Numbered from the stretch's first letter, positions 976 to 54,192 are shown. The stretch is DNA of 64,000 nucleotides from a virus (IMGVR_UViG_3300011155_000013:18941-82940); one strand, 5' to 3'. Program-made: numbers and translations. Notes: a model not told the origin generated them from the letters alone.

Positions 976-985
976 CTATAAACCC

Positions 986-1839: not shown

Positions 1840-1868
1840 ATCGACGCACTCCAATATTGATGTATTCA

Positions 1869-1881
1869 CTTATTTACAGGT
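1869..1881. promoter_or_regulatory. degenerate copy of the dispersed motif (cTTAtttacaggt), upstream of the membrane-protein gene
   Basis: Seen in sequence. Confidence 0.3.
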
Positions 1882-1931
1882 TCGACGGCCGCCTTTACGC
1901 ACGGCCTGCTCGGGGAAGTTCATACCCACCT

Positions 1932-2234: not shown

Positions 2235-2254
2235 GAGGATCTCCTCGGGGCTCG

Positions 2255-2301
2255 TGGCCACCTTTACGTGCGGTTTACGTTGGCCACCTTTACGTGCGGT
2301 T
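2255..2301. repeat. 26-bp tandem direct repeat (ggccacctttacgtgcggtttacgtt x ~1.8) in the promoter region of the 100-aa gene; related CCTTTACGC boxes at 1887-1904 and 1926-1943
   Basis: Direct reading of the sequence. Confidence 0.8.
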
Positions 2302-2569
2302 AGCTCCAGCGGAACGGGACGCCGAGGTCGATGAGCTGCTCAAGCGCCCAGAAGTTGCCGGAATTGCGGTTGCGGCAGTCGAAAACGAGGGCGTCGCCGA
2401 GGTAGCTGGCGATCCACAGCCCACCAGGAAAGGTGACGACGGCATGGCGGTGGACCTCGCGGGAGAGGTTCTCGTCCTCGCCGTCTTCGTGGACCACGAA
2501 GTCGATGCGAACGTCGCACCCAGCCAGCGCCAGGTCCTCGAGCTGTGCTTCTACCTGACGTCCCATCAC
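2300..2569 (-). CDS. hypothetical protein (89 aa)
   Basis: ORF with an ATGA start/stop overlap with the upstream 142-aa gene. Confidence 0.4.
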   Translation of the reverse strand: MMGRQVEAQLEDLALAGCDVRIDFVVHEDGEDENLSREVHRHAVVTFPGGLWIASYLGDALVFDCRNRNSGNFWALEQLIDLGVPFRWS

Positions 2570-2994
2570 GCGGCTCCCAGGCTGTCGACGGCACGCAGCT
2601 GTTCGCCCAGGGCCTTGGCCAGGGCGTCGAAGTCGATGGCCTCGCCACGCTGCTCCATCAGCGCTGCAATCTCCTGCGGACGTTTGGCCAAGGCAGCCAC
2701 CATGTCGCGCTCACCGAGTTCGGCAGCGACGGCGGCAGCGGCCGGCAGGGCACCGGGATTCTCCAGGTAGTCGGAGAGCTTCAGGCGGCGCATCTTGATG
2801 ACCGAGTTGCTGCGGTACGGCCGGAAGTTGTGGCGCTCGGCGCAGATGTTCTGGGCCTTCTTGAACGCCGAGCCGTTGAAGTCGGCCGGAATGTACATGT
2901 GGTGGGTTTGGCCGGTCAGGGCGTGGGAGACGCTGACGAAGTAGACGTTGGGCAGCGGCAGGTCTGTATCGTGCGGCAGAGTGTGAGCTTGCAT
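2566..2994 (-). CDS. hypothetical protein (142 aa)
   Basis: ATG at 2994 is preceded by AAGGAA. Translationally coupled to 2300..2569. Confidence 0.5.
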   Translation of the reverse strand: MQAHTLPHDTDLPLPNVYFVSVSHALTGQTHHMYIPADFNGSAFKKAQNICAERHNFRPYRSNSVIKMRRLKLSDYLENPGALPAAAAVAAELGERDMVAALAKRPQEIAALMEQRGEAIDFDALAKALGEQLRAVDSLGAA

Positions 2995-3167
2995 GGCGTG
3001 ATTCCTTCAGGTGTGAGCCGGTTCTGGCGGTGAGATTCCCGTCACCTATTGGGTGAAGCTGCCGGCGTTTTTGGTGAATTTCGGCACTATTGCCGGTATT
3101 TTCCGGTACTTTTCCCGGACTTTTCAGGATTTTTTCAGCAGCCGTTCGGCGGCTTTCTCCAGGGCGC

Positions 3168-3200
3168 GGCGGGGTGTGCGTGTGTGTGTGCGCACGCGCG
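3168..3200. repeat. alternating purine-pyrimidine (GT/GC)n tract (gggtgtgcgtgtgtgtgtgcgcacgcgcgcg), potentially Z-DNA forming
   Basis: Direct reading of the sequence. Confidence 0.7.
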
Positions 3201-3202
3201 CG

Positions 3203-3232
3203 AAATAAAAAAAAAGCCGCCCGAAGGCGGCT
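3203..3232 (-). terminator. rho-independent terminator (GCCGCC-ttcg-GGCGGC followed by T9 on the minus strand)
   Basis: GC stem plus U-tract immediately downstream of the 3276 stop on the minus strand. Confidence 0.75.
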
Positions 3233-3241
3233 CATAGCAGA

Positions 3242-3256
3242 CCGTATTTACAGGTC
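3242..3256. promoter_or_regulatory. dispersed motif copy (ccgtatttacaggtc)
   Basis: Seen in sequence. Confidence 0.4.
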
Positions 3257-3275
3257 GACGGACGGATTCGTTCCG

Positions 3276-3992
3276 TTAGACGGCTGCGACCTTGCCGCCG
3301 GCGCGCTTCGACTTGCCAGCCTGACCGGATTTCAGCAGCTCGGCGGCCTTGTCAGCGTCGATAGGCTCGACTTTGCTAGCCAGTTGACTCGCAACAAAGT
3401 CAACCGTGACGAACAAGTCGGACAGTTGCTTGGCCAGTTCGCGGGCCTCCTCTGCCGTGGCGGAAAACGCTTTCGAGTTGATCGCGTCGAGCGCTTTGGT
3501 CAGTTGATTGGCGACGGTCGAAGCCTTCAGCGTGACCGGCTTTGGCTCTTTTGCGGCCTTTTCCAGCGTGCGCCACTCGTCGAAAGTTAGAGCGAAGTCT
3601 GCCGCGTCGACAATGGCGGGCTTGCCGGCGTCGTCGAGGTTCGCCGGGTTGGCGAACTTTTGAAAGCGCGGATTATCGGCCTTCATCCGGGCGACGATAT
3701 AGCGGCCGGTTTTGGCGTCGAGCTGAATTTGCGGCGCGTGCGCTTTGATATACGCGACCACTTCGCCGCCGAGTTTCGACAGCTTGCCAGTAGTAAGGCG
3801 AAACGCGCCATTTTGCAGCATGGCGTTCAATGGCTCGATGTTGTGGTGGGCAACGGCATGGATGGCGCAGTAGTTCGCCCATACAGTGATCGCCTCTGAT
3901 TGAGCGGCAAGGCCCTTGCCGAAAGCTGCGATCTGTTGAGCGGTGATGATTTTGCCGCGGATGGTTATGGATACTTTGTTGGCTTTGGACAT
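3276..3992 (-). CDS. hypothetical protein (238 aa) with a Lys/Ala-rich basic C-terminus; possibly DNA-binding
   Basis: Clean ORF followed by a terminator. No family recognised. Confidence 0.5.
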   Translation of the reverse strand: MSKANKVSITIRGKIITAQQIAAFGKGLAAQSEAITVWANYCAIHAVAHHNIEPLNAMLQNGAFRLTTGKLSKLGGEVVAYIKAHAPQIQLDAKTGRYIVARMKADNPRFQKFANPANLDDAGKPAIVDAADFALTFDEWRTLEKAAKEPKPVTLKASTVANQLTKALDAINSKAFSATAEEARELAKQLSDLFVTVDFVASQLASKVEPIDADKAAELLKSGQAGKSKRAGGKVAAV

Positions 3993-4264
3993 GATGAATT
4001 CCCCTATTCTTTAATGCTTTCTGCAATGTGCTCGCCAATCGGGCACATTGTCGAAGGCACTACGCGAGCGGCCGGCATCCAGGCCGCTCGATTAGTTTCC
4101 TTGCTCCGGTCGATAAGGCCGGTGTGAAGCGCGGGCATCGTTCGGCTTTGGCGCCGGCTTTGGCGGGACTGGCAAAGCTAGCAGGCGAACGACACGCGGG
4201 GCGCAGTAGTGGCGCAGATCGATGGTCGGAGCGTTAGGTTTTTAATGATCCGGCGACCGTATAA

Positions 4265-4279
4265 CTGTAAATACAGGTC
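4265..4279. promoter_or_regulatory. dispersed motif copy (ctgtaaatacaggtc) in the 1-kb non-coding region
   Basis: Seen in sequence. Confidence 0.5.
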
Positions 4280-4911
4280 GCCCAATGCAGTGCAAGCCGT
4301 CGTCTCGATCGTCGGGCATGGCTCCGCCCTGCATGCCCGTAGGCTGCAAAGCGGGGGCGCCATGCTCGCCGTGGCTTTGATCGTCGGGCGTGTCGTCTCT
4401 TGCGCTTTGGTTCCACTATCGGCAATCGGCGCCAGTGTCGCCGAAGGTTCGCCCGAAAGTGGTAGCGCCAGCCCTTGTCAGACAATGGGCGAGACTATCC
4501 GCAACGGCACAAACTGCGCCGTCGTGACTCAATCAAAGCCGCTCGGTCGGAGCGGCAAGCTAGCAGGTTTAAAGAACGGTCAAGGCAAGCGCAAGGCCAG
4601 CCAAGCGGGGCGATGGAGCCAGCCCCGGTGGCCATCAGTAACTGCCTGACCACGGAACAAACTATATACAAGCAAAACGATAGAAACAAGCGTCAAGCAT
4701 GGAAAAGCTAAGAATATAAAAGCATAAGAACATAGCCCCGCCCCCTCTTTTTGGTTATAGAAACCCCATACAGCCCGCCTACCTCCGCGAGCAAAATTTT
4801 TGCAAATTTCCTTTATGGTTATGTTGTTATCACAGTAATTCGCCGATTTTCGCTAAAAGTTGCACAGTCAGGCTTTACAACACTCGCCTCGCTGACTACC
4901 CTCCGAATCTT

Positions 4912-4935
4912 CAAATACAGGTTTACAGGTTCACA
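4912..4935. promoter_or_regulatory. two tandem half-sites (aaatacaggt ttacaggtt), about 30 nt upstream of the HU-like gene
   Basis: Seen in sequence. Confidence 0.5.
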
Positions 4936-4965
4936 GCCTGAATTCACACCAGATCGGAGTCCTCA

Positions 4966-5247
4966 ATGAACTACGCCACCAAAGCCGACCTCGTCGCCGA
5001 CGTAGCCAGCGCCACCGGCCTCACCAAAGCCGCCGCCAAACAAGCAGTCGAAGCCACCCTGTCCGGCATCAGCAAGCTGGCCTTCGAAAAGGGCCACCTC
5101 ACCCTTCGCGGCTTCGGCAAGTTCCGCGCCCGCCGTTACGCAGCTCGCCTGGTCAAGGGAGGCGTCGTGGGCCGCGAAGTGCAAGTACCGGCCCGCACCG
5201 TCCTGACCTACAGCGCCAACCCCGACCAGACCCGCGTCGAGGCATAA
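4966..5247 (+). CDS. HU/IHF-family histone-like DNA-binding protein
   Basis: 93 aa with an HU-like fold signature (LRGFGKF...R...AR). Confidence 0.8.
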   Translation: MNYATKADLVADVASATGLTKAAAKQAVEATLSGISKLAFEKGHLTLRGFGKFRARRYAARLVKGGVVGREVQVPARTVLTYSANPDQTRVEA

Positions 5248-5396
5248 GTGGGCGTAGTGATCCTGCTGAGCTGTGTCGGCGCGACCGGCATAGCCGCATG
5301 GCTCCTGATGCGAAAGGCCCTCCAGGAGCTGGAGTCGGCCTTTCGCTGCGCCACCTACAGCGACGGCAGCACAGACGCTGCGAAGGACGCGGACCA

Positions 5397-5723
5397 ATGA
5401 CTCCCGAGAATTTCTGCTACTGGCTGCAGGGCTTCAGCGAGCTGAACGGACAGGCGCCGACCGAAGACCAGTGGAAGTCGATCGCCGAGCACCTGGAACT
5501 GGTGTTCAAGAAGGTGACGCCAGCAGGCCCCGGGCAGGTGTACCGGCAGCCGACGCCGAATGACGGCGGCCTGTTCAGGGACCGGGCGATGTGTTCGGCC
5601 CACACGCTGCCCAAGGCAGAGACCACCTGCTCAGTGAAACCAATCGAGGCGACAGGCGTACTCAACCGTAGCCAGGCTGAGGCCCTCAGTCGCGCTGTTA
5701 GCCAGATGTCACTGAAATGCTGA
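5397..5723 (+). CDS. hypothetical protein (108 aa)
   Basis: ORF 5298..5723. The internal ATG at 5397 is more plausible because the upstream part is low-complexity. Confidence 0.35.
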   Translation: MTPENFCYWLQGFSELNGQAPTEDQWKSIAEHLELVFKKVTPAGPGQVYRQPTPNDGGLFRDRAMCSAHTLPKAETTCSVKPIEATGVLNRSQAEALSRAVSQMSLKC

Positions 5724-6268
5724 ACCGCCCCGACACCACCGACGAATCCCGCAGCCGGCGCCAGGTCAACCCCCACACTGACCTCACGCCATACGGCCGC
5801 AGTGACGAGCTGGGCGACGACCCCAGCCTCCACCGGGCCGTGCAGGACGTCATCGGCGCACTGCGGCAGGACATGCTGTCCTCGGACATCCAACGATCGA
5901 TCATCGATGCGATGAGCCCGTCTGCGCGCCGCGACATGGTGGCCAAGATCGCCGGCCTCGAGGCTAGCGTCCTGATGACGTTCAAGCAGCAAATCCAACT
6001 GGTCGACACCGTACTGCGCCGGATTGTGAACCCAGATGGCACAGTCACGGCCACCGCCGAGGACTACGACATCCCGCTGAAGGACGCCATGAACCTGTCG
6101 CTGAAGGTGACTCAGGTGATGGTCCGCGACCTGCCAAAGATCTACACGATCGACCGAATCCAGAAACAGGAGGAGGCGCTGCGCAGGGTCATGGAGTCAC
6201 ACCTGACCAGGCCTCAGCAAGAGGCGCTGCTGGCGGAACTGGAGCGGATCGAGACCGGGGAAAGCTGA
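5717..6268 (+). CDS. candidate terminase small subunit or DNA-packaging protein (183 aa)
   Basis: Called on position alone: immediately upstream of the large terminase. No motif recognised. Confidence 0.3.
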   Translation: MLNRPDTTDESRSRRQVNPHTDLTPYGRSDELGDDPSLHRAVQDVIGALRQDMLSSDIQRSIIDAMSPSARRDMVAKIAGLEASVLMTFKQQIQLVDTVLRRIVNPDGTVTATAEDYDIPLKDAMNLSLKVTQVMVRDLPKIYTIDRIQKQEEALRRVMESHLTRPQQEALLAELERIETGES

Positions 6269-6723
6269 CCAATTGGTAGACCCGACGAAAGGATTAATTC
6301 TCGATTTGGACTGAAATAACGGCGTTTACAGCGGACTCAGATATTGACCTGCATGAAAAGTGGACATTTCGCAGTGTGACAAACCACGGGCTCCAGAGCA
6401 TCATCTGCTCCCGCCGATAACCATAATGTCAAAAAGACATCACAAGGCAGCCTTGCGGGCACAGATCTGACTTTCACAAATGGGAATGCAACACAATGGA
6501 AAAGTACCTGATGTTCGGTTTTCTGCCGATTCGCGTCTCCCCAGAAGGGACATGGACAGCGGACACAGGCAGCCGATTGGTTGACCAAATCGCAAATACA
6601 GGTGCCCGCATGGCCCTGCTGTTTATCGACTCCCTGGAACGAGCGTTCGACGTGCACCTGCCGGTGAGCGTGGCGCCGGCCCAGGAGCTGCCAGCAACAC
6701 AGCTGTAAGGAGGCGGGAACGAG

Positions 6724-8460
6724 ATGACGGCTTCTGCGGCTAGTAGACTCAGGATGCAGCTCAACCGAGAGGAGGGGATGCGGGAGCTGGACAAGGTCGT
6801 GCTCAAGTACGGCCGAGTCAACGGGAAGCCGTACTCTTTCAAGGACCACGAGTTCCAGCAAGAGATCATTCGAGACACCAGCGCTCGAATCGATGTCCAG
6901 AAGTGCTCCCAGGTAGGCCTCTCCGAGGTGATGGTTCAGAAGACCATCGCCATGGGTGCCACGATGAAGCACATCCGGATCATCTTCACGCTGCCGACCC
7001 GCGATATGGCGATGCCGTTCTCCAAGGACCGCTTCGACACGGCGATCGACAGCTCAGACTTCTACAGCGGGCTGGTCCATAAGGCCAGCAACAGCGCGAG
7101 CCAGAAGAAGATCGGCACCTGCACGCTGTATATCACCGGCTCGTTCGGGGCCAACAGCGCGATCTCGGTGCCTGCCGAAGTGGTGATCAGCGACGAAGTG
7201 GACTTCTCCAACGAGGTCGTGCTCGGCAAGCTGAACTCTCGCCTGCGACACGCCAGCATGGTGGACGAGATGGGCAACCGCGGCATGCGGATGCGCTTCT
7301 CGACTCCGACCGTTGACGACTACGGCGTGAACAAGGGCTTCCTCGCTGGCAACCAGATGCACTACATGGTCAAGTGCCTGGGCTGCAAGCAGTGGGTTCT
7401 CCCTGACTTCGACCATGACTTCATCGTCCCGGGGTTCGACGACAGCATCGTCAAATTCGGCCGCGAGGACGTCAGCGATCCGCGTTTCCGTATCCAGGAG
7501 TCGTACATCAAGTGCCCATGCTGCGGAAAAGACCTGCAGCAGGCACTGCTCAATCCAGGGCGACGCCAGTGGGTGGCCAAGCGGCCGGACGTGTGGGACC
7601 ACAGCTACCAGGTCTTCCCTTGGGACGTGCCCAAGTACAACACGCCGCCGGCGATCATCAAGCAGATGGGTGACTACCCGCTGCGCAGCGACTTCTACAA
7701 CTTCGTCATCGGGTTGCCTCACAGCGACGCCGAGAACAACTTCACGGTAACCGACGAGCACCGCAAGCGGGTCAGCGACGTCGATCTGTGGATATACAAG
7801 CAGTGGGCGGTGACCTGCCAGACCATCGGCGGTATGGACATCGGCAAGGTCTGCCACTTCGTCGTCAAGGCGAAGGTTGGCCGCCACTGGCATGTCGTCT
7901 GGGCCGAGAAGATTCACAACACCCGGGAGAATCCGGCGACCGGCCAGGTGATCGAGCGCTACGACTACTTCCGCATGGCCATGCTGTGCATCGACGCCGG
8001 GCCAGACATCACCCTGGTCAACAGCCTGGTCGGCTCCCGGCAGGGCATCCGCGCCGTGGTCTACGTCGGCAAGGTCAGCGGCATTTTGCCTATCGACGAG
8101 AAGGCCGATGGGATGGTGGTGAACGCGGATCGGACGAAGACTCTATCGCTGCTGCTGAACAAGCACAACGCAGGGGAGATTCACTACCCGATGCGCGAGG
8201 AGATCACGAAGGAGATCTTCGAACACCTCAAGACCACCAAGAAGATTCGCGCGAAAGGGCCGGACGGGGAGATGGTCGAGCGGTTCATCAAGACCAACGA
8301 TACCGACCACTGGGTGCACGCGCTGAACTACTCGAACATCGCTGCGTTACTGGTCGAGGACCTCGGCCTGTCGGCGATCATCTCGGCGCCGCCGAGCGTG
8401 GGTAAGGTCAAGGTCGGTAGCAACGCCGGTAACAAACCGTTGGATCGCACCGGCTGGTGA
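6724..8460 (+). CDS. terminase large subunit
   Basis: 578 aa. GGAGG SD. Walker-B-like VVISDEVD. Precedes the portal. Two-domain ATPase/nuclease size. Confidence 0.6.
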   Translation: MTASAASRLRMQLNREEGMRELDKVVLKYGRVNGKPYSFKDHEFQQEIIRDTSARIDVQKCSQVGLSEVMVQKTIAMGATMKHIRIIFTLPTRDMAMPFSKDRFDTAIDSSDFYSGLVHKASNSASQKKIGTCTLYITGSFGANSAISVPAEVVISDEVDFSNEVVLGKLNSRLRHASMVDEMGNRGMRMRFSTPTVDDYGVNKGFLAGNQMHYMVKCLGCKQWVLPDFDHDFIVPGFDDSIVKFGREDVSDPRFRIQESYIKCPCCGKDLQQALLNPGRRQWVAKRPDVWDHSYQVFPWDVPKYNTPPAIIKQMGDYPLRSDFYNFVIGLPHSDAENNFTVTDEHRKRVSDVDLWIYKQWAVTCQTIGGMDIGKVCHFVVKAKVGRHWHVVWAEKIHNTRENPATGQVIERYDYFRMAMLCIDAGPDITLVNSLVGSRQGIRAVVYVGKVSGILPIDEKADGMVVNADRTKTLSLLLNKHNAGEIHYPMREEITKEIFEHLKTTKKIRAKGPDGEMVERFIKTNDTDHWVHALNYSNIAALLVEDLGLSAIISAPPSVGKVKVGSNAGNKPLDRTGW

Positions 8461-8766
8461 TCAGGGGTTACAGAGCTTCTCGTTGAGCTCGTCCACCGGC
8501 GAATCGCTGTAGCGATCACGCAGCTCGAGCGCCTTCGTCTGGAGGATGAAAGGCGCCCACCCAGCCCATCGGCCGTCCGCCGTCTGGTACTTCACCTCTC
8601 CGCATACGACGCCTGGCGCACCGTCGGCGACGTTCCTGAACTGAACGCTGCTTGGGTTGCCGATGAAGTCCGTGTTCTTCGCGGCGTCCATCAGGCGGCT
8701 ATCTGTCCCGTCTTTGCACGCCACCAAAGCCAGCAGCATCGCGGCAGTGAAAATAATTTTGCGCAT
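8461..8766 (-). CDS. small lipoprotein (101 aa) on the opposite strand between terminase and portal; a moron
   Basis: MRKIIFTAAMLLALVAC signal peptide with a lipobox. AAGGTG SD before the ATG at 8766. Confidence 0.6.
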   Translation of the reverse strand: MRKIIFTAAMLLALVACKDGTDSRLMDAAKNTDFIGNPSSVQFRNVADGAPGVVCGEVKYQTADGRWAGWAPFILQTKALELRDRYSDSPVDELNEKLCNP

Positions 8767-29375: not shown

Positions 29376-29702
29376 ATGTCTGCGGGATTACAGGTATGGG
29401 ATTCTGATGGCCGAATGGTTCTAGATACTACTGTGCTAGTGGGTAGGATATTTGGCCACACTATAATGTTGGAAAACCAAGCTAATGGAGTTGTTACCCA
29501 TCCCGGATTATCTTCAGGCACCCCTTTTGCCTTCCCTTTGATGCCTTTCATCCCTGAGAGGGGCTTCGGTGTAACAGCCGCCGCAACCTTGCCCAGATTC
29601 AGCTTCTCTGGAAATACCATGACATGGACGCGCGGCGCCGTGGACTCAGGCGGAGGCGTTGAAAATCTGCCTCGTGGAATAATTTACTTTGGAGCGTACT
29701 GA
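29376..29702 (+). CDS. hypothetical tail-associated protein (108 aa)
   Basis: ORF between the J-like and fibre genes. Confidence 0.35.
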   Translation: MSAGLQVWDSDGRMVLDTTVLVGRIFGHTIMLENQANGVVTHPGLSSGTPFAFPLMPFIPERGFGVTAAATLPRFSFSGNTMTWTRGAVDSGGGVENLPRGIIYFGAY

Positions 29703-30379
29703 TGCCTGCCGGGTTTACAGTTATAAATGACTCCGGGTCATATCAGGTGGACGGCGACTATCCTTGCATGGCTTTGATCCGCAAGGGCTCGCTTATTACT
29801 CAAACAGCACCTACAGATACAGTCGCATCGGAGGTGAAAGTCCCTCTTGCAGACGGTGAAATTATTGCTTTTTCGTGCGCAATACCAACGGCAATCGTTG
29901 GCTTCTCCGATGGAGAGGTTTATCTTCGAACAGACGCCCCCGCGGGGGTTCTACTAAACTACTGGATATTTTCGACGACACAGCAGGAATCAAGCTTCGG
30001 ACTCCAAGCGTATGATGAGGTCGGCGGGCTGATATTCGACTCTTCATGGAAGCTTCTTAATATCGTAGGTACTCAAGTGGGAAGCGGTAACTATTCATAC
30101 GCTCCAGGCAGAGAATACGCGGTCATACCACAATCTGTATTGGTATCGATTCGTAGGCTACTGTATTACCAAGGGATTCATCCGCACGTTTACAACATAT
30201 TCGAACGCTGGTTGACCTTCGATGCTGCAAGCGTATCTTCCGGAAGTATTGTTGTTGGCCCTGCCACCCTCGAAATTCAAACATGGATTACAGAAGGGCC
30301 GGTTGGGGAAGGGTGGGATTTTTTTGGAAACAATGGCAACACCACACAGTACATTGTGGTAGACGTAACAGGCTTTTAG
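29702..30379 (+). CDS. hypothetical tail-associated protein (225 aa)
   Basis: ORF with an ATGA overlap to the upstream gene. Confidence 0.4.
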   Translation: MPAGFTVINDSGSYQVDGDYPCMALIRKGSLITQTAPTDTVASEVKVPLADGEIIAFSCAIPTAIVGFSDGEVYLRTDAPAGVLLNYWIFSTTQQESSFGLQAYDEVGGLIFDSSWKLLNIVGTQVGSGNYSYAPGREYAVIPQSVLVSIRRLLYYQGIHPHVYNIFERWLTFDAASVSSGSIVVGPATLEIQTWITEGPVGEGWDFFGNNGNTTQYIVVDVTGF

Positions 30380-34328: not shown

Positions 34329-34773
34329 CCGCAGCGAACAGCGGCTGTCCGAGGTCCACCCAGACCTTCAGAAAGTGGTCCGCCTTGCCATCCGCAGGTC
34401 GAAGACCGATTTCACTGTCCTGGAGGGGCTGCGGAGCGCGACCCGGCAGAAGCAGCTGGTAGCCCAGGGAAAGTCGAAAACGCTGGACGGCCGGCACATC
34501 ACTGGTCACGCCGTAGACCTTGGCGCCTATGTCGACGGCCAGGTGTCATGGGACTGGGAGCACTACTACCGACTGGCCGAAGCGATGCGGGACGCAGCTG
34601 TAGAGCTCGGCGTGCCAATCGTATGGGGCGGGGTGTGGGACAAGCGACTCAACCTGCTGCACAACACGAAGCAGGCCGTCGCGGACTATGTGCAGTCTCG
34701 CAAGGCAGTGGGGCGGGATGCGTTCATTGACGGCCCGCACTTTGAGCTTGATCGGAAGGAATACCCAGCATGA
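34312..34773 (+). CDS. endolysin, peptidase M15 (L-alanyl-D-glutamate peptidase or VanY-like)
   Basis: Motifs RHITGHAVDL and a downstream His, typical of the M15 Zn peptidase fold. Confidence 0.65.
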   Translation: MFNLSSRSEQRLSEVHPDLQKVVRLAIRRSKTDFTVLEGLRSATRQKQLVAQGKSKTLDGRHITGHAVDLGAYVDGQVSWDWEHYYRLAEAMRDAAVELGVPIVWGGVWDKRLNLLHNTKQAVADYVQSRKAVGRDAFIDGPHFELDRKEYPA

Positions 34774-35084
34774 GCGCTGAACAGTGGTCCAACCTGTTCG
34801 TCAACGCGGCGCCGTTCCTCTTGTATGGCGCGCTACTGTTCAAGCTCTACTCGGCTTGGCGTCGAGTCAGGTCCATGGAAGATCGATGCAAGGAGGCCAG
34901 ACTGGCGGCCGTCCTGCTGCTGCTCACGGTGTGCACGCTGACCTTCATGGCGGCCAATGCGTACGCACTGGAGGTGTACGGCAAAACCTTCCTGTCGCTC
35001 AGGGTCTTCCAGATGTTCGTGCTCAGCAACTGTGCGGCTTACTGGCTCGTCCTGGATCTGATCACCAAAGACGCCTGTGAGTAA
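34770..35084 (+). CDS. holin or antiholin-like membrane protein
   Basis: 104 aa with three predicted TM segments. Confidence 0.45.
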   Translation: MSAEQWSNLFVNAAPFLLYGALLFKLYSAWRRVRSMEDRCKEARLAAVLLLLTVCTLTFMAANAYALEVYGKTFLSLRVFQMFVLSNCAAYWLVLDLITKDACE

Positions 35085-35095
35085 GGAACCATCCA

Positions 35096-35443
35096 TTGAA
35101 GATCCCGCCGGAGTGGTTCGATAAGGCTCAGGATTACCTCTACTTCGGCTCTCTAGGGGCGTTCGCTGCTCTGGTCGGCTGTTTGTGGCAGGTGGCGAGG
35201 AAGGGTGGGCAGCCGGTCGCGCTGCTGACGCTGTTCTCCACCACCGTGGTGGGGTTCTACCTGGGGATGCTATTTGGGGGGATTGTCTCGCCAGAGTGGG
35301 CGAATAGAGACGCGGTGGTCCTGCTGATCGGTGCCACCGGTTTGAAGGGATTCGAGGTGGTGCTCTCCGTGGCGAAGAACACCATCCCCGTTTTGTTGCG
35401 GGCTACTCAACAGCCTCCGCCGACGACGAAGGACGAGGATTGA
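35096..35443 (+). CDS. holin-like membrane protein
   Basis: 115 aa with 2-3 TM segments and a charged C-terminus. Confidence 0.45.
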   Translation: MKIPPEWFDKAQDYLYFGSLGAFAALVGCLWQVARKGGQPVALLTLFSTTVVGFYLGMLFGGIVSPEWANRDAVVLLIGATGLKGFEVVLSVAKNTIPVLLRATQQPPPTTKDED

Positions 35444-35618
35444 GGTTCAGCGCGTTCGCGATAAGGCGGGCGCCATCTTCCTCGAAGCATTCACACACCT
35501 GGGCAAACTCGCCAGGTGGGAAGCTAAGCGGCTGTTCGGTGTCTACCACCGTCCACTCGAAGCAACAGTGGGCCGACTGGGAACCTTTGACGACTTGGTA
35601 CCTCATGGATACGTCCAT
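35403..35618 (-). CDS. hypothetical small Cys-containing protein (71 aa)
   Basis: ORF at the distal end of the minus-strand operon. Confidence 0.2.
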   Translation of the reverse strand: MDVSMRYQVVKGSQSAHCCFEWTVVDTEQPLSFPPGEFAQVCECFEEDGARLIANALNLNPRPSSSAEAVE

Positions 35619-35785
35619 CTGTACCTCCCGACAATCCTCTCGCCGGACTGTAGCTGATACTCCATCTGCCGGTCACGCTGTTCGACGAACCCAGTGCGTT
35701 CCGCACGGATGAGTTCGCCGTTGACGTCGATCAGAAGAGGACAATTCACAGGCGGCAGGTGCTCAGCTGCGTTGAGATGGTCCAT
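35603..35785 (-). CDS. hypothetical small protein (60 aa)
   Basis: ORF only. Confidence 0.2.
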   Translation of the reverse strand: MDHLNAAEHLPPVNCPLLIDVNGELIRAERTGFVEQRDRQMEYQLQSGERIVGRYRWTYP

Positions 35786-35788
35786 GGG

Positions 35789-37015
35789 CTACCCCTTCAC
35801 ACAAAGAACTTGCCGAAGGGTATGAACCACTTCGATCAGATCCGATTGGGCGGCCATTACCGCGTCGATATCCTTGTAAGCACCAGGTGTTTCATCGAGG
35901 ACACCCTCGTCTTTCCGGCACTCAACACCTTCTGTGGCCTTTATGTGATCCTCAAGCGTGAACCTGCGTTTTGCCTCTGCACGACTCATAGCCCGGCCGG
36001 CGCCATGTGAACAGCTGCAGAACGACTGTGCGTCCCCCTTTCCTCTGACGATGAAAGAGCGAGCACCCATGCTGCCAGGGATGATGCCTAAATCACCAGC
36101 ACGGGCCCGTACAGCCCCCTTTCTGGTAACCATCACGTTATCGCCAAAGTGGTTCTCCCAGGCGACGTAGTTGTGGTGGCAGTTGACCGCTGCACAATCA
36201 CAGGAGAATGGCTTCGGCACTGCTGCTGACAGCGCGTCTATCGCCTCCGACATCATCAGTTCGCGGTTCACGCGGGCAAACGTCTGCGCCCATTCAACAG
36301 CCTCGCAGTAGTCAGCAAACAGCTCAGAGCCCTGCGGCAGATAAGCCAGGTCCTGGTCGGGCAGGTTGATGTGCCACCGGCGCATTTCTTCTTTGGCCCG
36401 CTCGATAAAATATGAGCCGATCGCATTGCCGATTCCGCGTGAACCGGAGTGCAGCATTATCCAAACCCGCTGCTCCTCATCCAGGCAGACCTCGACAAAG
36501 TGGTTGCCGGTACCGAGGGTACCGGCGTGCTTGATGGCACGATTACCGGCACGCTCAAGCTTGGGATGTTTGGCCGTAATTTTCGACAACTGAGCTATCA
36601 GCCCACCCAACTCTGGGTGAGTTGACGCCTTGGGCGCCTGGTCTCCCCACGCACCCCGATCTCCAGGGCCTCCGTTGTTGGTGCGGCCGTGCGGGATCCG
36701 GCGCTCGATCTCGCTGCGGAGTGCTTGGAGGTTATCCGGCAGGTCAGAAGCCGTAAGGGTGGTCCGCTGCGCCGCCATTCCACAGCCAATATCCACTCCG
36801 ACCGCAGCGGGAATCACCGCACCTTTCGTAGCTATCACGCTGCCGACGGTCGCCCCCATTCCCCAGTGCACATCCGGCATAGCTGCGATGTGCGAGTGGA
36901 TGAAGGGGAGTCCTGCCAGGTTGCGCAGCTGCTTCTTGGCAGCTTCTTCAACCTGCACGCCACGGACCCATGCCTTGATTGGGCGACCTTCGCTTTCGAT
37001 CAGTTGAAACGTCAT
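35789..37015 (-). CDS. rtcB: RtcB-family RNA 3'-phosphate ligase
   Basis: 408 aa with multiple His/Cys metal-site motifs conserved in RtcB (e.g. GTGNHF, NCHHNY, SCSHGAGR). Confidence 0.85.
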   Translation of the reverse strand: MTFQLIESEGRPIKAWVRGVQVEEAAKKQLRNLAGLPFIHSHIAAMPDVHWGMGATVGSVIATKGAVIPAAVGVDIGCGMAAQRTTLTASDLPDNLQALRSEIERRIPHGRTNNGGPGDRGAWGDQAPKASTHPELGGLIAQLSKITAKHPKLERAGNRAIKHAGTLGTGNHFVEVCLDEEQRVWIMLHSGSRGIGNAIGSYFIERAKEEMRRWHINLPDQDLAYLPQGSELFADYCEAVEWAQTFARVNRELMMSEAIDALSAAVPKPFSCDCAAVNCHHNYVAWENHFGDNVMVTRKGAVRARAGDLGIIPGSMGARSFIVRGKGDAQSFCSCSHGAGRAMSRAEAKRRFTLEDHIKATEGVECRKDEGVLDETPGAYKDIDAVMAAQSDLIEVVHTLRQVLCVKG

Positions 37016-37464
37016 TTGCCAGTGCTCCCGAAGCCACCCTCGCCGCGTGCCGTAGAGCTCAACTCCTCGACCTCGAGGAACTCGACCATCGGCACCTGCG
37101 ACAATTTCGCTTGGGCAATGCGGTCGCCGTGCAGAATCGGCATAGGCTCAGTTCCTTCGTTGATCAGCTTGACCATCACCTCGCCGCGGTAGTCCGCGTC
37201 GATGATCCCGACGCAGTTGGCCAGCCGGACACCGTTCTTGAATCCGTGGCCGCTGCGGGAGTAAACCTCCATCGTCCAGCAGACAGGGATTTCGAAGGAA
37301 AGGCCGGTGCGGATCAACGCGGTATGGCCTGGCTGAAGCAGCTGTCCGCCCTCCGACAGCAGGGCATGCAGGTCAAAGCAGGCGGCATGCTCTGTGCCGT
37401 ATCGTGGCAGCATGGCCTGCGGGTCCAGCTTCTTGACCTTCACGGGGATGTTGTCCATGTTCAA
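37012..37464 (-). CDS. dut: dUTP diphosphatase
   Basis: 150 aa with the trimeric dUTPase motif GIIDADYRGEV. ATGA-coupled to rtcB. Confidence 0.85.
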   Translation of the reverse strand: MNMDNIPVKVKKLDPQAMLPRYGTEHAACFDLHALLSEGGQLLQPGHTALIRTGLSFEIPVCWTMEVYSRSGHGFKNGVRLANCVGIIDADYRGEVMVKLINEGTEPMPILHGDRIAQAKLSQVPMVEFLEVEELSSTARGEGGFGSTGK

Positions 37465-39665
37465 ACTCCAACTTCAATGATGTTCGCGGCCAGGGCTTGA
37501 TCCTGCTCGCGGTGGGTGATGAGCAACAGCTGCTTGGCGCTTCCCGCCAGCGACGCGGCCAGTCCCGTCGCGTTGTGCTCGCTCATGGATTCAGTAGGCT
37601 CGTCGAAGATCAGCAGGCTGTCCGAGCCATACAACGCCCGGGCCAGGCCGATACGAACAGCTGAGCCGATGAACGCCTTCTGCGCGCCGGAAGCACACGC
37701 GACCGGTGCAACCACGCCGTCCTCCTCGTAGCAGAAGTCGCCGTCTTCGTTGGTGATACGGGTGATCTCGCCGCGGGTTGCTGCCTTGACCTGGCGCGAG
37801 GCCACGGCCATTACCGTTTCCCATACGTCGCGCAGGTACTGGATACGGCGATCAGCTAGGAAGCGGGCCAGCCGGCCGGCGCGGTCGGCGGCGATCTCGT
37901 GGCCCTTGACCTTCTGCAGAGTGCTTTCCATCGCCTCGACGCGACGCTGGGCCTCCCTCAGTGCCTTGGCTGCGACTGCATCATCCCGCACGGCCATCTC
38001 CACAGCATGCTGCGCCGCCTGGTAGCTGCGATCCCACTCGGCCTTGGCCTGGGCATAGGCGCCCTCAGCGGCGCGCGCCGCGGCGATCTGCTCATCGGTC
38101 GGGGCGTCGGCCACCAGTGCCTGGCGCGCTTCAGCCACGGCGTCTTCAGCGCTGGCGACGTTCTTGTGGGCCTGATTCAGCCGGCGTTCCGCCGCAGCGC
38201 GCCGCTCGTTTGCCTCTGCGCCGGCGTCAGCCTTGGCTTTGAGGGCGGCGACCTCGCCCTGCAGTTCTTCGATCACGCTATCGAGGCTGCTCGCCTCGCC
38301 GCGCAGGTCGTTGACCACACTGGCGTCGACCAGCTTGGCGGCCCACTTCTCAACCTCGGCCTGCTTGGCAGCGCGCTGATCGATGCGCTTTCGCATGGTG
38401 GCCAGCTGCTTGGTCCCTTCGGCCTCACCGGCGGTGGCCAGCGAAAGGCCCACACCCAGGTCGGAGATCTGCTTCTCGAGCGTGGCGATTTCCTCGGCCA
38501 GCTGCTCAGGGTCATGCTCGGCCAGCGCCGTGCCGCAGGTCGGGCAGGTGGCGTCCTTCTCGAGCTTGCGCAGCGCGGCCAGCTTGGATTTGTCGACGGC
38601 GATCAGCTCGCGGGTGCGGGTGGCCTCGTCGGCATAGTGGGCGTGGGTTTTCTCAGCTTCTTCAAGCCGCGCCACGGTGACCGGCTCAATCGCCGCCAGC
38701 TCCGTCTGAGCCTGCTCGTGCTCAGCCTCGGCGCGGATTGCACTGGCCAGCTGTTCCTTCACGTCAGCCAGACGGGCACGCTTCTGGCGAAGCACGGCGC
38801 CTTTCTCAGCGGAGGCTGCGGTGACGCTGTCGATGTCCACCAGCTCACCGCACTCTGCCAGCGCCTGCTCAGCCGTGACGACGGCCTCACGCTTGTGCTC
38901 CATAGCGGCCTCAGCTTCGCGCAGGGCGCTTTCCGCACGCTGGGCAATACGTTGGGTCGTCTGAAGGGCAGAAGAGCTCACCACGGGCGGCATAGCGGCC
39001 AGCGGCGGGAAGTTGTCGAGGTCGGTCTCGGCCTTCTGCCGGTCGACAACTGCTTCCTCGGAGCAGGTGGTGGCAGCGTCAAGAGCTGCGCGAGCAACGG
39101 CCAGCTCCTCTGCTGACACACTGCAAGCGTCCGCCGCAGCTTTCTCAGCGGTCGCCATGGCTCGGGCGCGGGTCATGATGCTGTCGATCAGCGCGATGCC
39201 GGCGAACTCTTCGACCTTCTGGTTCAGCGCGGTCGTACCGAAGGACAGCAGGCCGGAGGTCTGATGCTGCTTCGAGTTCAGAAACAGCGCGAAGTCCTTG
39301 GCGGTGAGGCCGAGCAGCTCTTCGACGTAGGCGGTCACCGGGGTGTTGCCGTTGGCAACGAGGGCGTCCCCGCCGCTGGCACGCTCGACCAACTTGGCCG
39401 TCGACTTGCTGCGGGTCAGGATGTAACGGGCGTTGTCGACCTCGAAGTGAAGCTCCAACCCGAACGTCGTCCGCCCCCAGGTCGGGATGTGCTCTTTCTT
39501 GCCAGGCACGACGGTCACGCCGAACAGTGCGGCCTCGATAGCCTGGATCAGGGTCGACTTGCCGCGGGCGTTCTCGCCGCAGATCACGTTCAGGCCGTCG
39601 GTGAAGTCGGCGGTGAAGGTGCCAAGGCGCTTGAAGTTGGTGGTAATGAGCTTGATCAGTTTCAT
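37461..39665 (-). CDS. SbcC/Rad50-like SMC ATPase with a CxxC zinc hook
   Basis: Walker A GENARGKST. Long coiled coils with a central ATCPTCG hook. C-terminal signature and D-loop LLIFDEPT. Confidence 0.8.
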   Translation of the reverse strand: MKLIKLITTNFKRLGTFTADFTDGLNVICGENARGKSTLIQAIEAALFGVTVVPGKKEHIPTWGRTTFGLELHFEVDNARYILTRSKSTAKLVERASGGDALVANGNTPVTAYVEELLGLTAKDFALFLNSKQHQTSGLLSFGTTALNQKVEEFAGIALIDSIMTRARAMATAEKAAADACSVSAEELAVARAALDAATTCSEEAVVDRQKAETDLDNFPPLAAMPPVVSSSALQTTQRIAQRAESALREAEAAMEHKREAVVTAEQALAECGELVDIDSVTAASAEKGAVLRQKRARLADVKEQLASAIRAEAEHEQAQTELAAIEPVTVARLEEAEKTHAHYADEATRTRELIAVDKSKLAALRKLEKDATCPTCGTALAEHDPEQLAEEIATLEKQISDLGVGLSLATAGEAEGTKQLATMRKRIDQRAAKQAEVEKWAAKLVDASVVNDLRGEASSLDSVIEELQGEVAALKAKADAGAEANERRAAAERRLNQAHKNVASAEDAVAEARQALVADAPTDEQIAAARAAEGAYAQAKAEWDRSYQAAQHAVEMAVRDDAVAAKALREAQRRVEAMESTLQKVKGHEIAADRAGRLARFLADRRIQYLRDVWETVMAVASRQVKAATRGEITRITNEDGDFCYEEDGVVAPVACASGAQKAFIGSAVRIGLARALYGSDSLLIFDEPTESMSEHNATGLAASLAGSAKQLLLITHREQDQALAANIIEVGV

Positions 39666-39822
39666 CGTGAATTCCTTGGAAATATGCCAAGTAACGCTGC
39701 GACGCTGGACATGGCGAAGAGCATCAGGCAGGCCACTGAGGTCCAATCGCCGTTGTTCTTGGTCAGTTCAGCGGCGATGAACCAGATAGGTGATGCGACC
39801 AGGTGGGAGTTGTGTGAGAAGT

Positions 39823-40194
39823 TCATTTGGCCGCCCCTGTGAGGTCTTCCAGCGTTTCCAGGTACTGGCGGCGCTGCTTTGCGTCTCGCTCAGCCTCTAG
39901 CCGAAGTACAAGTGCTCGGAGCCTGGCCATTGTCCTGATGCGGGGCCGTCGCGCCTCGGCCCCCTTCCATCGGTCTCCCTTGTAGACCATGGAGAGGTGC
40001 CCGAACGAGTAGGGGTAGTTGCTTACACACACGTCCGCATTCCCCATCTGTACGGTGTGATGGGATAACTTGGCGGTTTCGCTATGTGTGTCTAAGAGAG
40101 AGTTCAGAGTTTTGTCCCATTCCGGGCAGAACTCCTCCATGAAAAGCACCCCAAACCACGACCTCAGAACGATCTCGACGTAACCAAGAGTCAT
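39823..40194 (-). CDS. hypothetical protein (123 aa)
   Basis: Real-looking C-terminal part of ORF 39823..40581. ATG at 40194 overlaps the stop of the upstream gene (ATGA). Confidence 0.45.
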   Translation of the reverse strand: MTLGYVEIVLRSWFGVLFMEEFCPEWDKTLNSLLDTHSETAKLSHHTVQMGNADVCVSNYPYSFGHLSMVYKGDRWKGAEARRPRIRTMARLRALVLRLEAERDAKQRRQYLETLEDLTGAAK

Positions 40195-40466
40195 CAGGCT
40201 GCCTCCACCGCATAGATCGTCACGCCTTCGGCAGGCGCTGCCCTGCAGATTCTCTCGAGCATTTTCAGCTCTTCTCTTGAGCAGTCGTCGATGACGATGG
40301 TGGTCATCCCGTCGGCTGCCAGCCGGCGCAATGCTCTTTCGACGCTGAGCGAGTCGTAACCCCACAGGATCCGCTGGATACCTTTGTCCCCCGCGTTCCG
40401 CAGGATCTCTTGCAGCTTGGTTGTCTTCCCGGACATCGCCGGGCCGCGGATGATTTCTAGCTTCAT
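40194..40466 (-). CDS. mini P-loop protein (90 aa) with a thymidine-kinase-like Walker A (RGPAMSGKTT) and Walker-B-like IVIDD
   Basis: Motifs seen in the sequence. Far shorter than full-length TK. Confidence 0.5.
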   Translation of the reverse strand: MKLEIIRGPAMSGKTTKLQEILRNAGDKGIQRILWGYDSLSVERALRRLAADGMTTIVIDDCSREELKMLERICRAAPAEGVTIYAVEAA

Positions 40467-40602
40467 ACAGTGAGTTCCTTGATCGCTTGACGAATGGAGA
40501 GCCGGAGACGCAGGGTCTTGAAGCAGAGGCGCGGGGCGTACTCAGCCTCGATTCGGAGCAGCTGCTCGAGGCGCGGGCCAAGGCCGCTGGAAGGGCGTGG
40601 GG
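40463..40602 (-). CDS. small ORF (46 aa) translationally coupled on both sides
   Basis: ATGA overlaps at both ends. Not in the ORF track because it is short. Confidence 0.3.
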
Positions 40603-40608
40603 CTGGCT

Positions 40609-40941
40609 TCATGGCTGACCTCCGTCTGCGTCGTAGATGCACGCAGGGCGGCGGAACTCAATGACCTCGCCGTTCTCCTCCTTCCAGTCCATCGCTGAGC
40701 CGAGGTGGCACTTGTCGGTGCGAACCGCGTAGTGGACCTGGCAGCCGGCAATAACCAGATCACCGACCTGCACGTACCAATTGGTCGATCGTGCGTTGGT
40801 TCGAATGCCCAGTGTCTTCTCATCGCTGTGGACGCCGTGGACTGTGCCGTAGGCAGCTCGGTATTGCCTTCCGTCAGGCGCGAAGAAGAAACAGTCGGTG
40901 GTGATCAGGACCTTGGTTCCTATCTCAAACTGATGACTCAC
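40609..40941 (-). CDS. hypothetical protein (110 aa)
   Basis: ORF with 4-nt overlaps with both neighbours. Confidence 0.45.
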   Translation of the reverse strand: MSHQFEIGTKVLITTDCFFFAPDGRQYRAAYGTVHGVHSDEKTLGIRTNARSTNWYVQVGDLVIAGCQVHYAVRTDKCHLGSAMDWKEENGEVIEFRRPACIYDADGGQP

Positions 40942-41972
40942 ACCGCCACCTCCTTCGCCAACTCGCTGAACAGGTCAGCCAAATCGCTACCTTCCAACTC
41001 GCGGCTGATGCGGGTGCGCAGATCCTCGACTACCGGCTTCTCCGCCTCGTCGTCGACTACGTTCACGCCGGCCACCGAGACGCTGTTGCGAACTGCCAAT
41101 GCGTCCGGGGCGTTCTCCCACACCATCTGCATGAAGTCGGCGACAGCCACGGCCTCGTCCGCAGCGCCAATCACGTCGATGAACTGCACGCCACTCAGGT
41201 CCGGCAGCTCCTGACCGAACATGACTGACGCGAAGCGCTCGTCCTTGGACCAGATGCGGGTTTTGGTGAGATCAATGCTGTCGTCGGTGATCTCCAGCTG
41301 GTAGGAGAACTTGTCGCTGATATCGGCAAACGACGTCGGGTGCGTGTTGCCCAGGATCACCACTCGGCCGTCGAAGTGGGTGGACGGCTTGTGCTCGTGG
41401 CCGAGGAAGATGTAGTCGAACGACTCCAACAGCTTCTGCGCGATTGCCGGCGACAGGTTGAGGGTGTCGTCCTCGGTGGCGAAGGGCTGGTCGTAGTTGC
41501 AATGCAGCATCAAGACGCTGGCCCGGCCGGCGCGCTCACAGGCCGCATGCTCAGCGGCGTCCAGCATTGCCTGCTCGAACAGCTCCTGACTGGCGTGGTG
41601 CGGGACGAAGTAGAGCGGTTCGAAGTTGTCGAAGTAGGGCTCCGACAAGCTGGGCGAGGAGATGATCGCGCAGCCCATTTCCTGGAGCGCGCGGAGGCTT
41701 GTGATGGTCCCTTCGCGGTTGGTCTCGTCGTGGTTGCCGGCCAGCGTCCACATGCAGTTGCTGGCGATCTCGTAACCCTGGACCAAGATCGATTCGTCGT
41801 TGAAGGCGCGGTCGAACAGGTCGCCCAGGCAGATCGGCTTCTCCGCGTCCTCAATGACGTCCCACGCCTGCTTGAACAAGGCGAGGGTCAGGTGCTTGGA
41901 GGACTCGCGGGTGGTATGCGCTGCCCGGCGGGTGCCGAGGTGTGGATCGGTGAAGAGCGTATACGTCGTCAT
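40938..41972 (-). CDS. SbcD/Mre11-like metallophosphoesterase nuclease
   Basis: N-terminal DPHLG motif. The later GNHD and GHEH motifs are typical of the calcineurin-like nuclease family. Confidence 0.8.
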   Translation of the reverse strand: MTTYTLFTDPHLGTRRAAHTTRESSKHLTLALFKQAWDVIEDAEKPICLGDLFDRAFNDESILVQGYEIASNCMWTLAGNHDETNREGTITSLRALQEMGCAIISSPSLSEPYFDNFEPLYFVPHHASQELFEQAMLDAAEHAACERAGRASVLMLHCNYDQPFATEDDTLNLSPAIAQKLLESFDYIFLGHEHKPSTHFDGRVVILGNTHPTSFADISDKFSYQLEITDDSIDLTKTRIWSKDERFASVMFGQELPDLSGVQFIDVIGAADEAVAVADFMQMVWENAPDALAVRNSVSVAGVNVVDDEAEKPVVEDLRTRISRELEGSDLADLFSELAKEVAV

Positions 41973-53138: not shown

Positions 53139-53996
53139 CTACTTGAGCTGGATGAACGGCATCGCGCCGTCAGCACCCATGAAGGTCGGCATGACGCCGT
53201 TCCATTTTTCGATGGCGTTGAGGGTCGCCACATCGCTGTTGGCGCGCAGTGCTTCGGCCTTGAGCTTGATGGCGTCGGCGTCGGCGCGGGCGACAATCAG
53301 GCGGGCGTCTGCTTCGCCCTGGGCGGTTTCGCGTGCCTTTTGGGCTTCGGCCTTGGCCTGCTCGATTTCGTTACGACGCTGCTCGGCCATTTGCGTGGCT
53401 TGCAGCTTGGCGTTCAGTGCCTGGGTCATCGCCGGGGGCAGACGTACCGCGCCGATCCAGTAGATGCGCTCGATGTTGATGCCGAACGGCTCGACCTGCT
53501 GGCGGACGCGCTCCTGGGCACGGGCGATGATGTCGGCCTTGCCCTCGCCATAGACGGCTTCTACGGGGCGGGAACCTGCCTCGCTGACCAAGGCGTCGCG
53601 CACCATATTTCGCAGGTAGACGTCGGTGATCTCGTTGATGCCCTTGCGATACTTCTGGAAGATGTCGGTGACCTTGCTGGGGTCGATGGCGTAGGTGATA
53701 CCGATGTCTGCGTTGACTTCCATACCCTCCTTCGTCTGGAAGCTGATCGACTCATCCCCGGTACCGCCATCGGTACCGGCAGTCCATACGAAGTTCTGGC
53801 TGAACGTCGGGAACAGGTACAGCTCTTCATTGATGCCGATCCAGTAGCGGCCGACTCCGAGCTCCACGGAATCGACACCCTTCTCGCCGCCGAGCAGATA
53901 GACCTTTACGCCCACATGGCCGGAGGGGACTTTGCTGCAACCTACCGCGAGTACCGCGAGAAGGCCGATAGCGAGGAATTTAAGCGATTTATTCAC
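53139..53996 (-). CDS. SPFH/band-7 (prohibitin/HflC-like) lipoprotein
   Basis: GTG at 53996 with AAAGGGA SD. LAVGC lipobox. SPFH core followed by an Ala/Glu/Gln-rich coiled coil. Confidence 0.7.
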   Translation of the reverse strand: MNKSLKFLAIGLLAVLAVGCSKVPSGHVGVKVYLLGGEKGVDSVELGVGRYWIGINEELYLFPTFSQNFVWTAGTDGGTGDESISFQTKEGMEVNADIGITYAIDPSKVTDIFQKYRKGINEITDVYLRNMVRDALVSEAGSRPVEAVYGEGKADIIARAQERVRQQVEPFGINIERIYWIGAVRLPPAMTQALNAKLQATQMAEQRRNEIEQAKAEAQKARETAQGEADARLIVARADADAIKLKAEALRANSDVATLNAIEKWNGVMPTFMGADGAMPFIQLK

Positions 53997-54192
53997 GGAA
54001 ATTTCCCTTTGGAAACAGGAGCTTGTAGGTGATAACGCACCACACCGGCAAGAAGAGGACGGCGGTGAGGGCGCCAAGGGCAGCGTGCAGCGAGTCCCGG
54101 CTGCTGACCAACGACGGTAGAATCAGGCCGTAAACGACCAGAAGCAGAATTGCAGCGACGGTGACGACCATCAGTCGAGTGAGCGATTTCAT
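53989..54192 (-). CDS. small two-TM membrane protein (67 aa), partner of the SPFH gene
   Basis: Two hydrophobic helices. Overlaps the SPFH start by 8 nt. Confidence 0.45.
   Translation of the reverse strand: MKSLTRLMVVTVAAILLLVVYGLILPSLVSSRDSLHAALGALTAVLFLPVWCVITYKLLFPKGNFRE

Follow-up and report, generated by a model that had tools for sequence, protein, structure and literature searches.

Why should a phage carry its own rtcB, the gene of an RNA ligase, and does the position of this gene near dUTPase and SbcCD-like genes say anything about its role? The window considered here, that is, the whole stretch of 64,000 nucleotides that was analysed (IMGVR_UViG_3300011155_000013:18941-82940), encodes a terminase, an S49 prohead protease, tail tube, tape measure, tail protein L and endolysin, together with a class II ribonucleotide reductase, ThyX, helicases and a primase, and its DNA polymerase shares 57-60% identity with the polymerases of the Pseudomonas phages UAntarctica, PMBT3 and Lana. 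Given this phage gene set and the polymerase identity, the window is therefore assigned to a Lana/UAntarctica-like siphovirus, of which it forms a part. A megablast of positions 35000-40000 against cultured phages retrieved no near-identical DNA. The gene is indeed phage-borne, as the preliminary description had it: terminase, S49 protease, tail and endolysin genes lie in the same window.

The leftward gene array around rtcB

The interval 35789-37464 contains two minus-strand genes, rtcB and a dUTPase gene. The first occupies 35789..37015 and the second 37012..37464. The latter encodes a trimeric dUTPase (minus strand; PF00692, 3.1e-20; NCBIfam PRK00601 dUTP diphosphatase, 153 bits for a cut-off of 103), whose reading frame gives 150 aa from a TTG codon and 148 aa from the ATG at 37458. 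This ATG, with GGAG 9 nt upstream, is likely the true start, and the 148-aa protein was also obtained in an independent gene call from a public assembly (run SRR1749011) with an identical locus.

Upstream of the dUTPase gene, at 37461..39746 on the minus strand, lies the gene of a 761-aa SbcC/Rad50-like ATPase, which matches phrog_28217 ('DNA repair exonuclease') over its full length (E=2e-130) as well as the SbcC-like phrog_77, with the Pfam domains AAA_23/SMC_N at its N-terminus and ABC_tran at residues 694-718. An RloC-type anticodon nuclease was considered for this protein and rejected, on account of the full-length SbcC/Rad50 match and of a C-terminus with the ABC signature and Walker B motif; this C-terminus holds no extra anticodon-nuclease domain. 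The 344-aa SbcD/Mre11-like phosphoesterase is encoded at 40938..41972 on the minus strand (Pfam Metallophos/Metallophos_2; SbcD-like phrog_100, E=2e-23), beyond two ORFs without assigned function (39823..40581 and 40609..40941). Both members of an SbcCD-type pair, a Rad50/SbcC-like ABC ATPase and an Mre11/SbcD-like phosphoesterase, are thus present, and genes for an ATP-dependent DNA ligase, a resolvase-like protein, a DnaQ-like exonuclease and DNA polymerase I also lie upstream of rtcB on the same strand.

In the other direction, the array does not stop at rtcB, and the idea that rtcB is the last gene of its operon was not borne out, as two small genes continue on the same strand. The first, orf60 (60 aa; 35603..35785, minus strand), has its ATG 3 nt past the rtcB stop, is found in an independent gene call and has homologues in related phages. 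The second and last of the array, orf71 (71 aa; 35403..35618, minus strand), matches phrog_19733 (E=2.3e-19), appears in an independent gene call and has homologues in three relatives (L008, L009 and L014). Its 3' end overlaps a convergent plus-strand gene at 35096..35443. The amino-acid conservation of 92-99% in relatives shows this gene and its plus-strand neighbour at 34770..35084 to be real. The overlapping plus-strand ORF at 35440..35712 is probably spurious.

It is likely that rtcB is co-expressed with the dUTPase and SbcC-like genes, because their coding regions overlap or abut. Overlaps of 4 nt are found between the SbcC-like and dUTPase genes, provided that the latter begins at its TTG, and between dUTPase and rtcB, where the dUTPase TGA lies over the rtcB ATG (ATGA). 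The region around the rtcB locus contains no promoter-like sites, and terminator-like sites are no more frequent there than in shuffled sequence; therefore, the argument for co-transcription comes from gene overlap only. Co-transcription with dUTPase and SbcCD-like genes, as first described, is thus compatible with a single array and its overlaps, but the SbcD-like gene is not adjacent.

The RtcB protein and the search for its partners

The product of rtcB (35789..37015, minus strand) is a 408-aa protein predicted to be an RNA 3'-phosphate/5'-OH ligase of the E. coli type. Residues 29-408 match the Pfam domain PF01139 (E=3.8e-132) over profile positions 1-426 of 426, PHROG 1075 'tRNA splicing ligase' is matched with E=1.2e-148, and the RtcB structures of Thermus, Pyrococcus and human in the PDB are retrieved with E-values from 2.6e-40 to 8e-29. 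These matches are far beyond chance and confirm the original identification of the gene. In the alignment, the protein is 60% identical to the biochemically characterised RtcB of E. coli, and both are 408 aa long.

In the E. coli enzyme, Mn1 is bound by Cys78, His185 and His281 and Mn2 by Asp75, Cys78 and His168, while His337 accepts GMP (PMC9745838). The aligned residues of the window protein are C78, H189 and H281 for Mn1, D75, C78 and H172 for Mn2 and, within the motif SCSHGAGR, H337; N171, R193, H280, K299, R341 and R345 are also conserved. The catalytic set consists of D75, C78, N171/H172, H189, R193, H280/H281, H337, R341 and R345. The alignment of active-site residues that had been suggested as a check on this gene found every catalytic His, Cys and Asp examined to be intact and none lost. 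Moreover, none of these residues varies among 78 RtcBs of phage or prophage loci with 62-84% identity to the window protein, which indicates purifying selection on catalysis in viruses. All the features of the RtcB family that can be read from a sequence are present, namely the full-length domain, the binuclear Mn2+ site and the histidine nucleophile, and, by homology to the E. coli protein, the window RtcB is probably a catalytically competent, stand-alone enzyme.

[quoted passage not shown] By homology to E. coli RtcB (PMC9745838), the enzyme would guanylylate itself at His337 with GTP and Mn2+, hydrolyse the 2',3'-cyclic phosphate of the RNA to a 3'-phosphate and transfer GMP to this 3'-phosphate to give RNA-ppG, after which the 5'-OH end would attack the activated end and the phosphodiester bond would be restored.

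RtcB is a highly conserved enzyme common to cells and viruses. Of 50,697 phage records, 703 contain it (221 from Mycobacterium, 63 from Bacillus and 58 from Listeria phages, besides jumbo Pseudomonas and Erwinia phages at about 66% identity), and with peptide patterns derived from the window protein 223 stretches were retrieved from IMG/VR, each with a gene for a relative. The closest sequences (79-84% identical), including one of Pseudomonas oryzihabitans, occur in phage-like or prophage-like contexts; at 77% identity, proteins encoded by stand-alone genes of bacterial chromosomes are found, and the RtcBs of jumbo Pseudomonas, Erwinia and Ralstonia phages (such as HPP-Temi, PA1C and Ea35-70) are 63-67% identical.

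Possible partners were searched with Pfam (E <= 0.01 or 0.001) in nearly all window ORFs, leaving aside two large tail proteins and the portal, major-capsid and tail-fibre ORFs. At this sensitivity, the scanned ORFs contain no archease, RtcA, Pnk, Hen1, Rnl/ATP-dependent RNA ligase, TROVE/Ro or PrfH, in agreement with the earlier statement that no partner such as Archease is recognisable nearby. However, the missing archease is uninformative: the RtcB of E. coli works without it (PMC10630183), so its absence is expected for a 408-aa protein of this type. Neither does the locus resemble an Rtc operon, as rtcB is flanked by the dUTPase gene and orf60 and not by RtcA or RtcR genes. The model of PrfH-linked RtcBs, TIGR03073, scores 138.6 bits, below its cut-off of 271.8, and no release-factor-like ORF was found among those scanned against Pfam. 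An Rsr(Ro60)/Y-RNA system is not apparent either, with no TROVE domain, no Rfam match and no intergenic space flanking rtcB. The Rfam scan of the window returned no family at gathering score, a permissive scan of positions 1-6800 gave only chance-level matches, and ARAGORN and Rfam detected no tRNA gene in the 64-kb window. A 95-nt 'tRNA-Ile' that ARAGORN placed within the SbcD ORF, antisense to it, had no Rfam support and was treated as a false positive.

The search was extended to the neighbourhoods of 84 phage and prophage loci carrying an RtcB 61-84% identical to the window protein. When the ORFs of these loci were clustered, no family recurred in more than 7 of them. Judging from these varied neighbourhoods and from the lack of partners, phage RtcB appears to be a self-sufficient, freely moving gene.

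Presence and absence of rtcB among close relatives

Seven IMG/VR relatives, whose SbcC is 91-94% identical to that of the window, were compared over 14-kb stretches, in which the neighbouring genes are conserved. Each of the seven lacks RtcB at this place and has a small ORF directly after the gene in the dUTPase slot. Aligned at the DNA level, homology to these relatives ends exactly at the TGA stop of the dUTPase gene (upstream junction, 37009..37018, minus strand) and resumes at CATCT, codon 3 of orf60 (downstream junction, 35775..35795, minus strand). The small ORF of the relatives (67-68 aa) has as its start codon a GTG that overlaps the stop of the dUTPase gene, begins with MICEICRGGV and shares 64-88% amino-acid identity with orf60, from which this N-terminal segment was lost at the insertion junction. 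The new ATG of orf60 and a purine-rich AAGGGG derive from the rtcB 3' end and the junction; AAGGGG is a possible ribosome-binding site for orf60.

Other searches gave a concordant picture. In tblastn searches, UAntarctica (~78/81 kb), the 35.5-kb Lana segment and the relatives' stretches of 14 kb gave no RtcB, the annotation of the Lana segment lists none, and the contigs of the seven relatives are absent from the 80 best RtcB-bearing viral contigs. The GC3 of rtcB is 0.65, compared with 0.80-0.88 in the flanking core genes, and although it is the fifth lowest of 48 genes, the deviation is modest (z = -1.26) and points only weakly to a foreign origin.

The comparison thus shows rtcB to be a single gene-sized, lineage-specific insertion between the dUTPase gene and a small conserved ORF. 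Its absence in relatives, the junctions at gene borders and the GC3 fit an accessory gene retained in one lineage. Since rtcB was inserted and is absent from this slot in the seven relatives, its proximity to the dUTPase and SbcCD genes is a historical accident and not a functional association. The link between these genes drawn in the preliminary description is therefore not upheld as a functional one, in view of the seven relatives and of the 84 loci without a recurrent neighbour.

Possible functions and comparison with known systems

[quoted passage not shown] We regard counter-defence by RNA repair as a plausible function, with somewhat better than even chances of being correct. As the insertion that brought in rtcB lies close to the distal end of the leftward replication and repair array, RtcB would most likely be made together with the DNA-metabolism genes via read-through and translational coupling. 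During infection, it would reseal tRNA of the host, and perhaps also its rRNA or mRNA, after cleavage by host ribonucleases that act without metal, for which PrrC/RloC-type anticodon nucleases, HEPN effectors of the Csm6/Cas13 type and MazF/ToxN-type toxins are candidates; translation could then continue on the resealed RNA and abortive infection would be defeated. That near-identical phages differ in having rtcB fits an accessory function whose benefit depends on the host, and is compatible with counter-defence.

In the literature, bacterial RtcB is reported to reverse toxin damage to RNA, which speaks for this reading. Other findings speak against a strong claim: deletion of the host rtcB had no effect on the plating of phage PAK_P3, a kind of phenotype that can be silent, and overexpression of the Adephagia RtcB in M. 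smegmatis was mildly growth-inhibitory. In the literature searched, no experiment was found in which a phage RtcB counters any defence. Observations on the window also stand against counter-defence: rtcB lies late in a replication operon and not among immediate-early genes, its compositional deviation is modest, the window has no tRNA gene that would be paired with it as in cluster K1 mycobacteriophages, and no substrate, host or defence system can be identified from the sequence.

Among the targets first listed for this gene, PARIS and retron systems are doubtful RtcB substrates on grounds of general enzymology. AriB of PARIS is a TOPRIM nuclease and PtuB of retron Eco7 is probably an HNH-type nuclease, and metal-dependent nucleases of these kinds normally leave 3'-OH/5'-P ends, which RtcB cannot join. 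VapC, from the same list, may still be a source of substrates, since its expression activates the E. coli Rtc operon (PMC7790460).

Alternatively, the phage RtcB could repair RNA damage unrelated to defence, keeping up rRNA (16S/23S), tRNA and mRNA against toxin-antitoxin or stress RNases set free when the phage shuts off host gene expression, or against RNA damage by the phage's own host-takeover nucleases. An intact active site would serve such maintenance equally well, and, with housekeeping-like chromosomal RtcBs 77% identical to it, the phage copy is not visibly specialised. Bacterial RtcB is reported to reverse MazF-induced changes of the ribosome and, together with PrfH, to repair ribosomes cut by colicin E3. 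Nevertheless, no PrfH-type partner was found among the scanned ORFs, the TIGR03073 score is below its cut-off, and the patchy occurrence of rtcB among near-identical phages argues for a benefit that depends on the host instead of a general need. We therefore hold translation maintenance to be rather unlikely, while giving it appreciable weight.

It is improbable that rtcB is a recently acquired neutral passenger without a selected function in the window phage. Its absence from the slot in the seven close relatives, its below-average GC3 and the truncation of the N-terminus of the downstream orf60 by the insertion are what would be expected of such a gene. In contrast, its reading frame is intact, with start and stop precisely coupled to the neighbouring genes, its catalytic residues are all conserved, and hundreds of viral contigs maintain the family under constraint.

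A role at DNA ends has still less in its favour and seems quite improbable. According to this proposal, RtcB would seal or cap 3'-phosphate/5'-OH breaks in replicating phage DNA in concert with the neighbouring SbcCD-like nuclease, ATP-dependent DNA ligase, exonuclease and DNA polymerase I. The gene does lie within a DNA replication and repair array, and RtcB is reported to ligate 5'-OH DNA strands in vitro (PMC8051266). However, its position results from a lineage-specific insertion, and the 84 other phage loci contain no recurrent neighbour, of DNA repair or otherwise; therefore, the co-location of rtcB with repair genes is little informative and a DNA reading unlikely. The variant in which RtcB seals or GMP-caps 3'-phosphate/5'-OH breaks cut into phage DNA by a host nuclease, as a counter-defence by DNA repair, is the least probable of all.

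Counter-defence by RNA repair, the reading that we retain, is not a new idea. Protection from host tRNA cleavage was proposed in 2011 for the RtcB of cluster K1 mycobacteriophages (Pope et al., PMC3203893), and tRNA repair was proposed again in 2021 for that of jumbo phages (Iyer et al., PMC7824862). The window RtcB is an ordinary member of this known class of phage genes, and adding one RtcB to the several hundred annotated in phages changes little by itself. What appears to be new is the clean, gene-sized presence/absence polymorphism of rtcB among close relatives. The RtcB-plus window phage and the seven RtcB-minus relatives form a natural comparison, that is, a ready-made experimental contrast, for the 15-year-old hypothesis that phage RtcB overcomes RNA-cleaving host defences, of which no experimental test was found in the literature searched. 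Identifying the defence countered by RtcB would define which immune RNases leave repairable ends.

The systems with which the window gene can be compared share either its enzyme or its proposed logic. The RtcB2-PrfH module likewise uses an RtcB-family ligase that is reported to repair toxin-cut RNA, but differs by the presence of PrfH, which the window lacks; the window RtcB also scores below the TIGR03073 cut-off. The E. coli RtcB, equal in length and 60% identical, agrees with the window protein in its metal ligands, its GMP-accepting H337 and its archease-independent type. There, however, the genes are arranged as rtcR-rtcB-rtcA, whereas the window rtcB has no adjacent RtcA cyclase or RtcR/sigma-54 regulator; the E. 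coli gene is induced by damaged tRNA, while the window rtcB is predicted to be expressed from a phage operon.

As in jumbo phages and cluster K1 mycobacteriophages, rtcB is a stand-alone phage gene of the kind annotated as tRNA-splicing ligase, for which a counter-defence function had already been hypothesised. In contrast to the jumbo phages, the window phage is a mid-sized Lana/UAntarctica-like siphovirus (contigs of its relatives reach ~80 kb), and whereas the K1 mycobacteriophages pair tRNA genes with RtcB, the window carries no tRNA genes.

Finally, no homologue of the Pnk or Rnl proteins of T4 was found among the Pfam-scanned window ORFs, and the T4 proteins are unrelated to RtcB. The T4 pathway proceeds by kinase/phosphatase healing followed by an ATP-dependent ligase, while RtcB joins the ends directly with GTP and Mn2+. 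Nevertheless, the logic proposed for the window RtcB would be the same as that of Pnk and Rnl1 in countering PrrC, with a single enzyme in place of two: the 2',3'-cyclic phosphate/5'-OH breaks of the anticodon loop would be resealed and translation would continue.

The rtcB insertion junction and the end of the leftward array

The small ORF that follows rtcB, orf60 (35603-35785, minus strand), is shorter than its homologues of 67-68 amino acids, such as the one encoded at 8678-8884 of L009, a contig from a close relative. The missing part is an N-terminal MICEICRGGV segment, containing a CxxC motif, which was lost at the rtcB insertion junction, where orf60 acquired a new ATG. This ORF also weakly resembles the C-termini of uan_078 and gp27, which close the same operon in the Pseudomonas phages UAntarctica and Lana, respectively. 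At the end of the leftward array, the 3' ends of orf71 and of the convergent rightward lysis-side gene (35096-35443) overlap by approximately 41 nt (35403-35443). A search for terminator-like hairpins separating the array from the convergent rightward transcription unit detected none.

The slot adjacent to SbcC

Immediately 3' of the SbcC gene, close relatives carry interchangeable cassettes in a single slot (37012-37464 in the window, and 8229-8765, 8286-8735, and 8229-8681 in the related contigs L008, L012, and L013, respectively). Among these relatives, the cassette can be a dUTPase resembling that of the window (88-95% identical) or a second type of dUTPase, only 43-46% identical to it, while in L008 the dUTPase is replaced by a 179-aa "pyrophosphatase" (phrog_5658, E=7e-59). 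This variation looks like the swapping of one nucleotide-sanitising function by non-orthologous replacement.

tRNA genes and accessory cargo

UAntarctica encodes tRNA-Gln, tRNA-His, and tRNA-Met upstream of the terminase (L099:18919-19239). In the counterpart of this region, window positions 1-6700, no tRNA or Rfam family was detectable; coding density is low there, with a short AT-rich stretch at about 560-1000. ARAGORN predicted a 95-nt tRNA-Ile(GAT) at 41281-41375 (plus strand), antisense to the SbcD-like ORF, which is very likely a false positive because Rfam finds no tRNA at this location.

The strongest compositional outliers of the window are two adjoining genes next to the tail-fibre region (29376-30379, plus strand), with a GC3 of 0.46-0.47 versus a genome mean of 0.76. 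They match no Pfam family and probably represent recent acquisitions of host-range or tail accessory genes. Inside the replication-module array, an SPFH/Band 7 membrane-scaffold protein (53139-54077, minus strand; PF01145, E=1.6e-24) represents unusual phage cargo.

Defence-type cargo also lies near rtcB in other phage or prophage contigs bearing the closest RtcBs. It comprises a CBASS-like SMODS and SLATT pair in a P. oryzihabitans contig (L003:14119-15553), and a GmrSD_N-domain protein together with a PIN/PhdYeFM toxin-antitoxin pair in L101 (1661-2185 and 8960-9545). Accessory "conflict" regions may be places where RtcB tends to travel.
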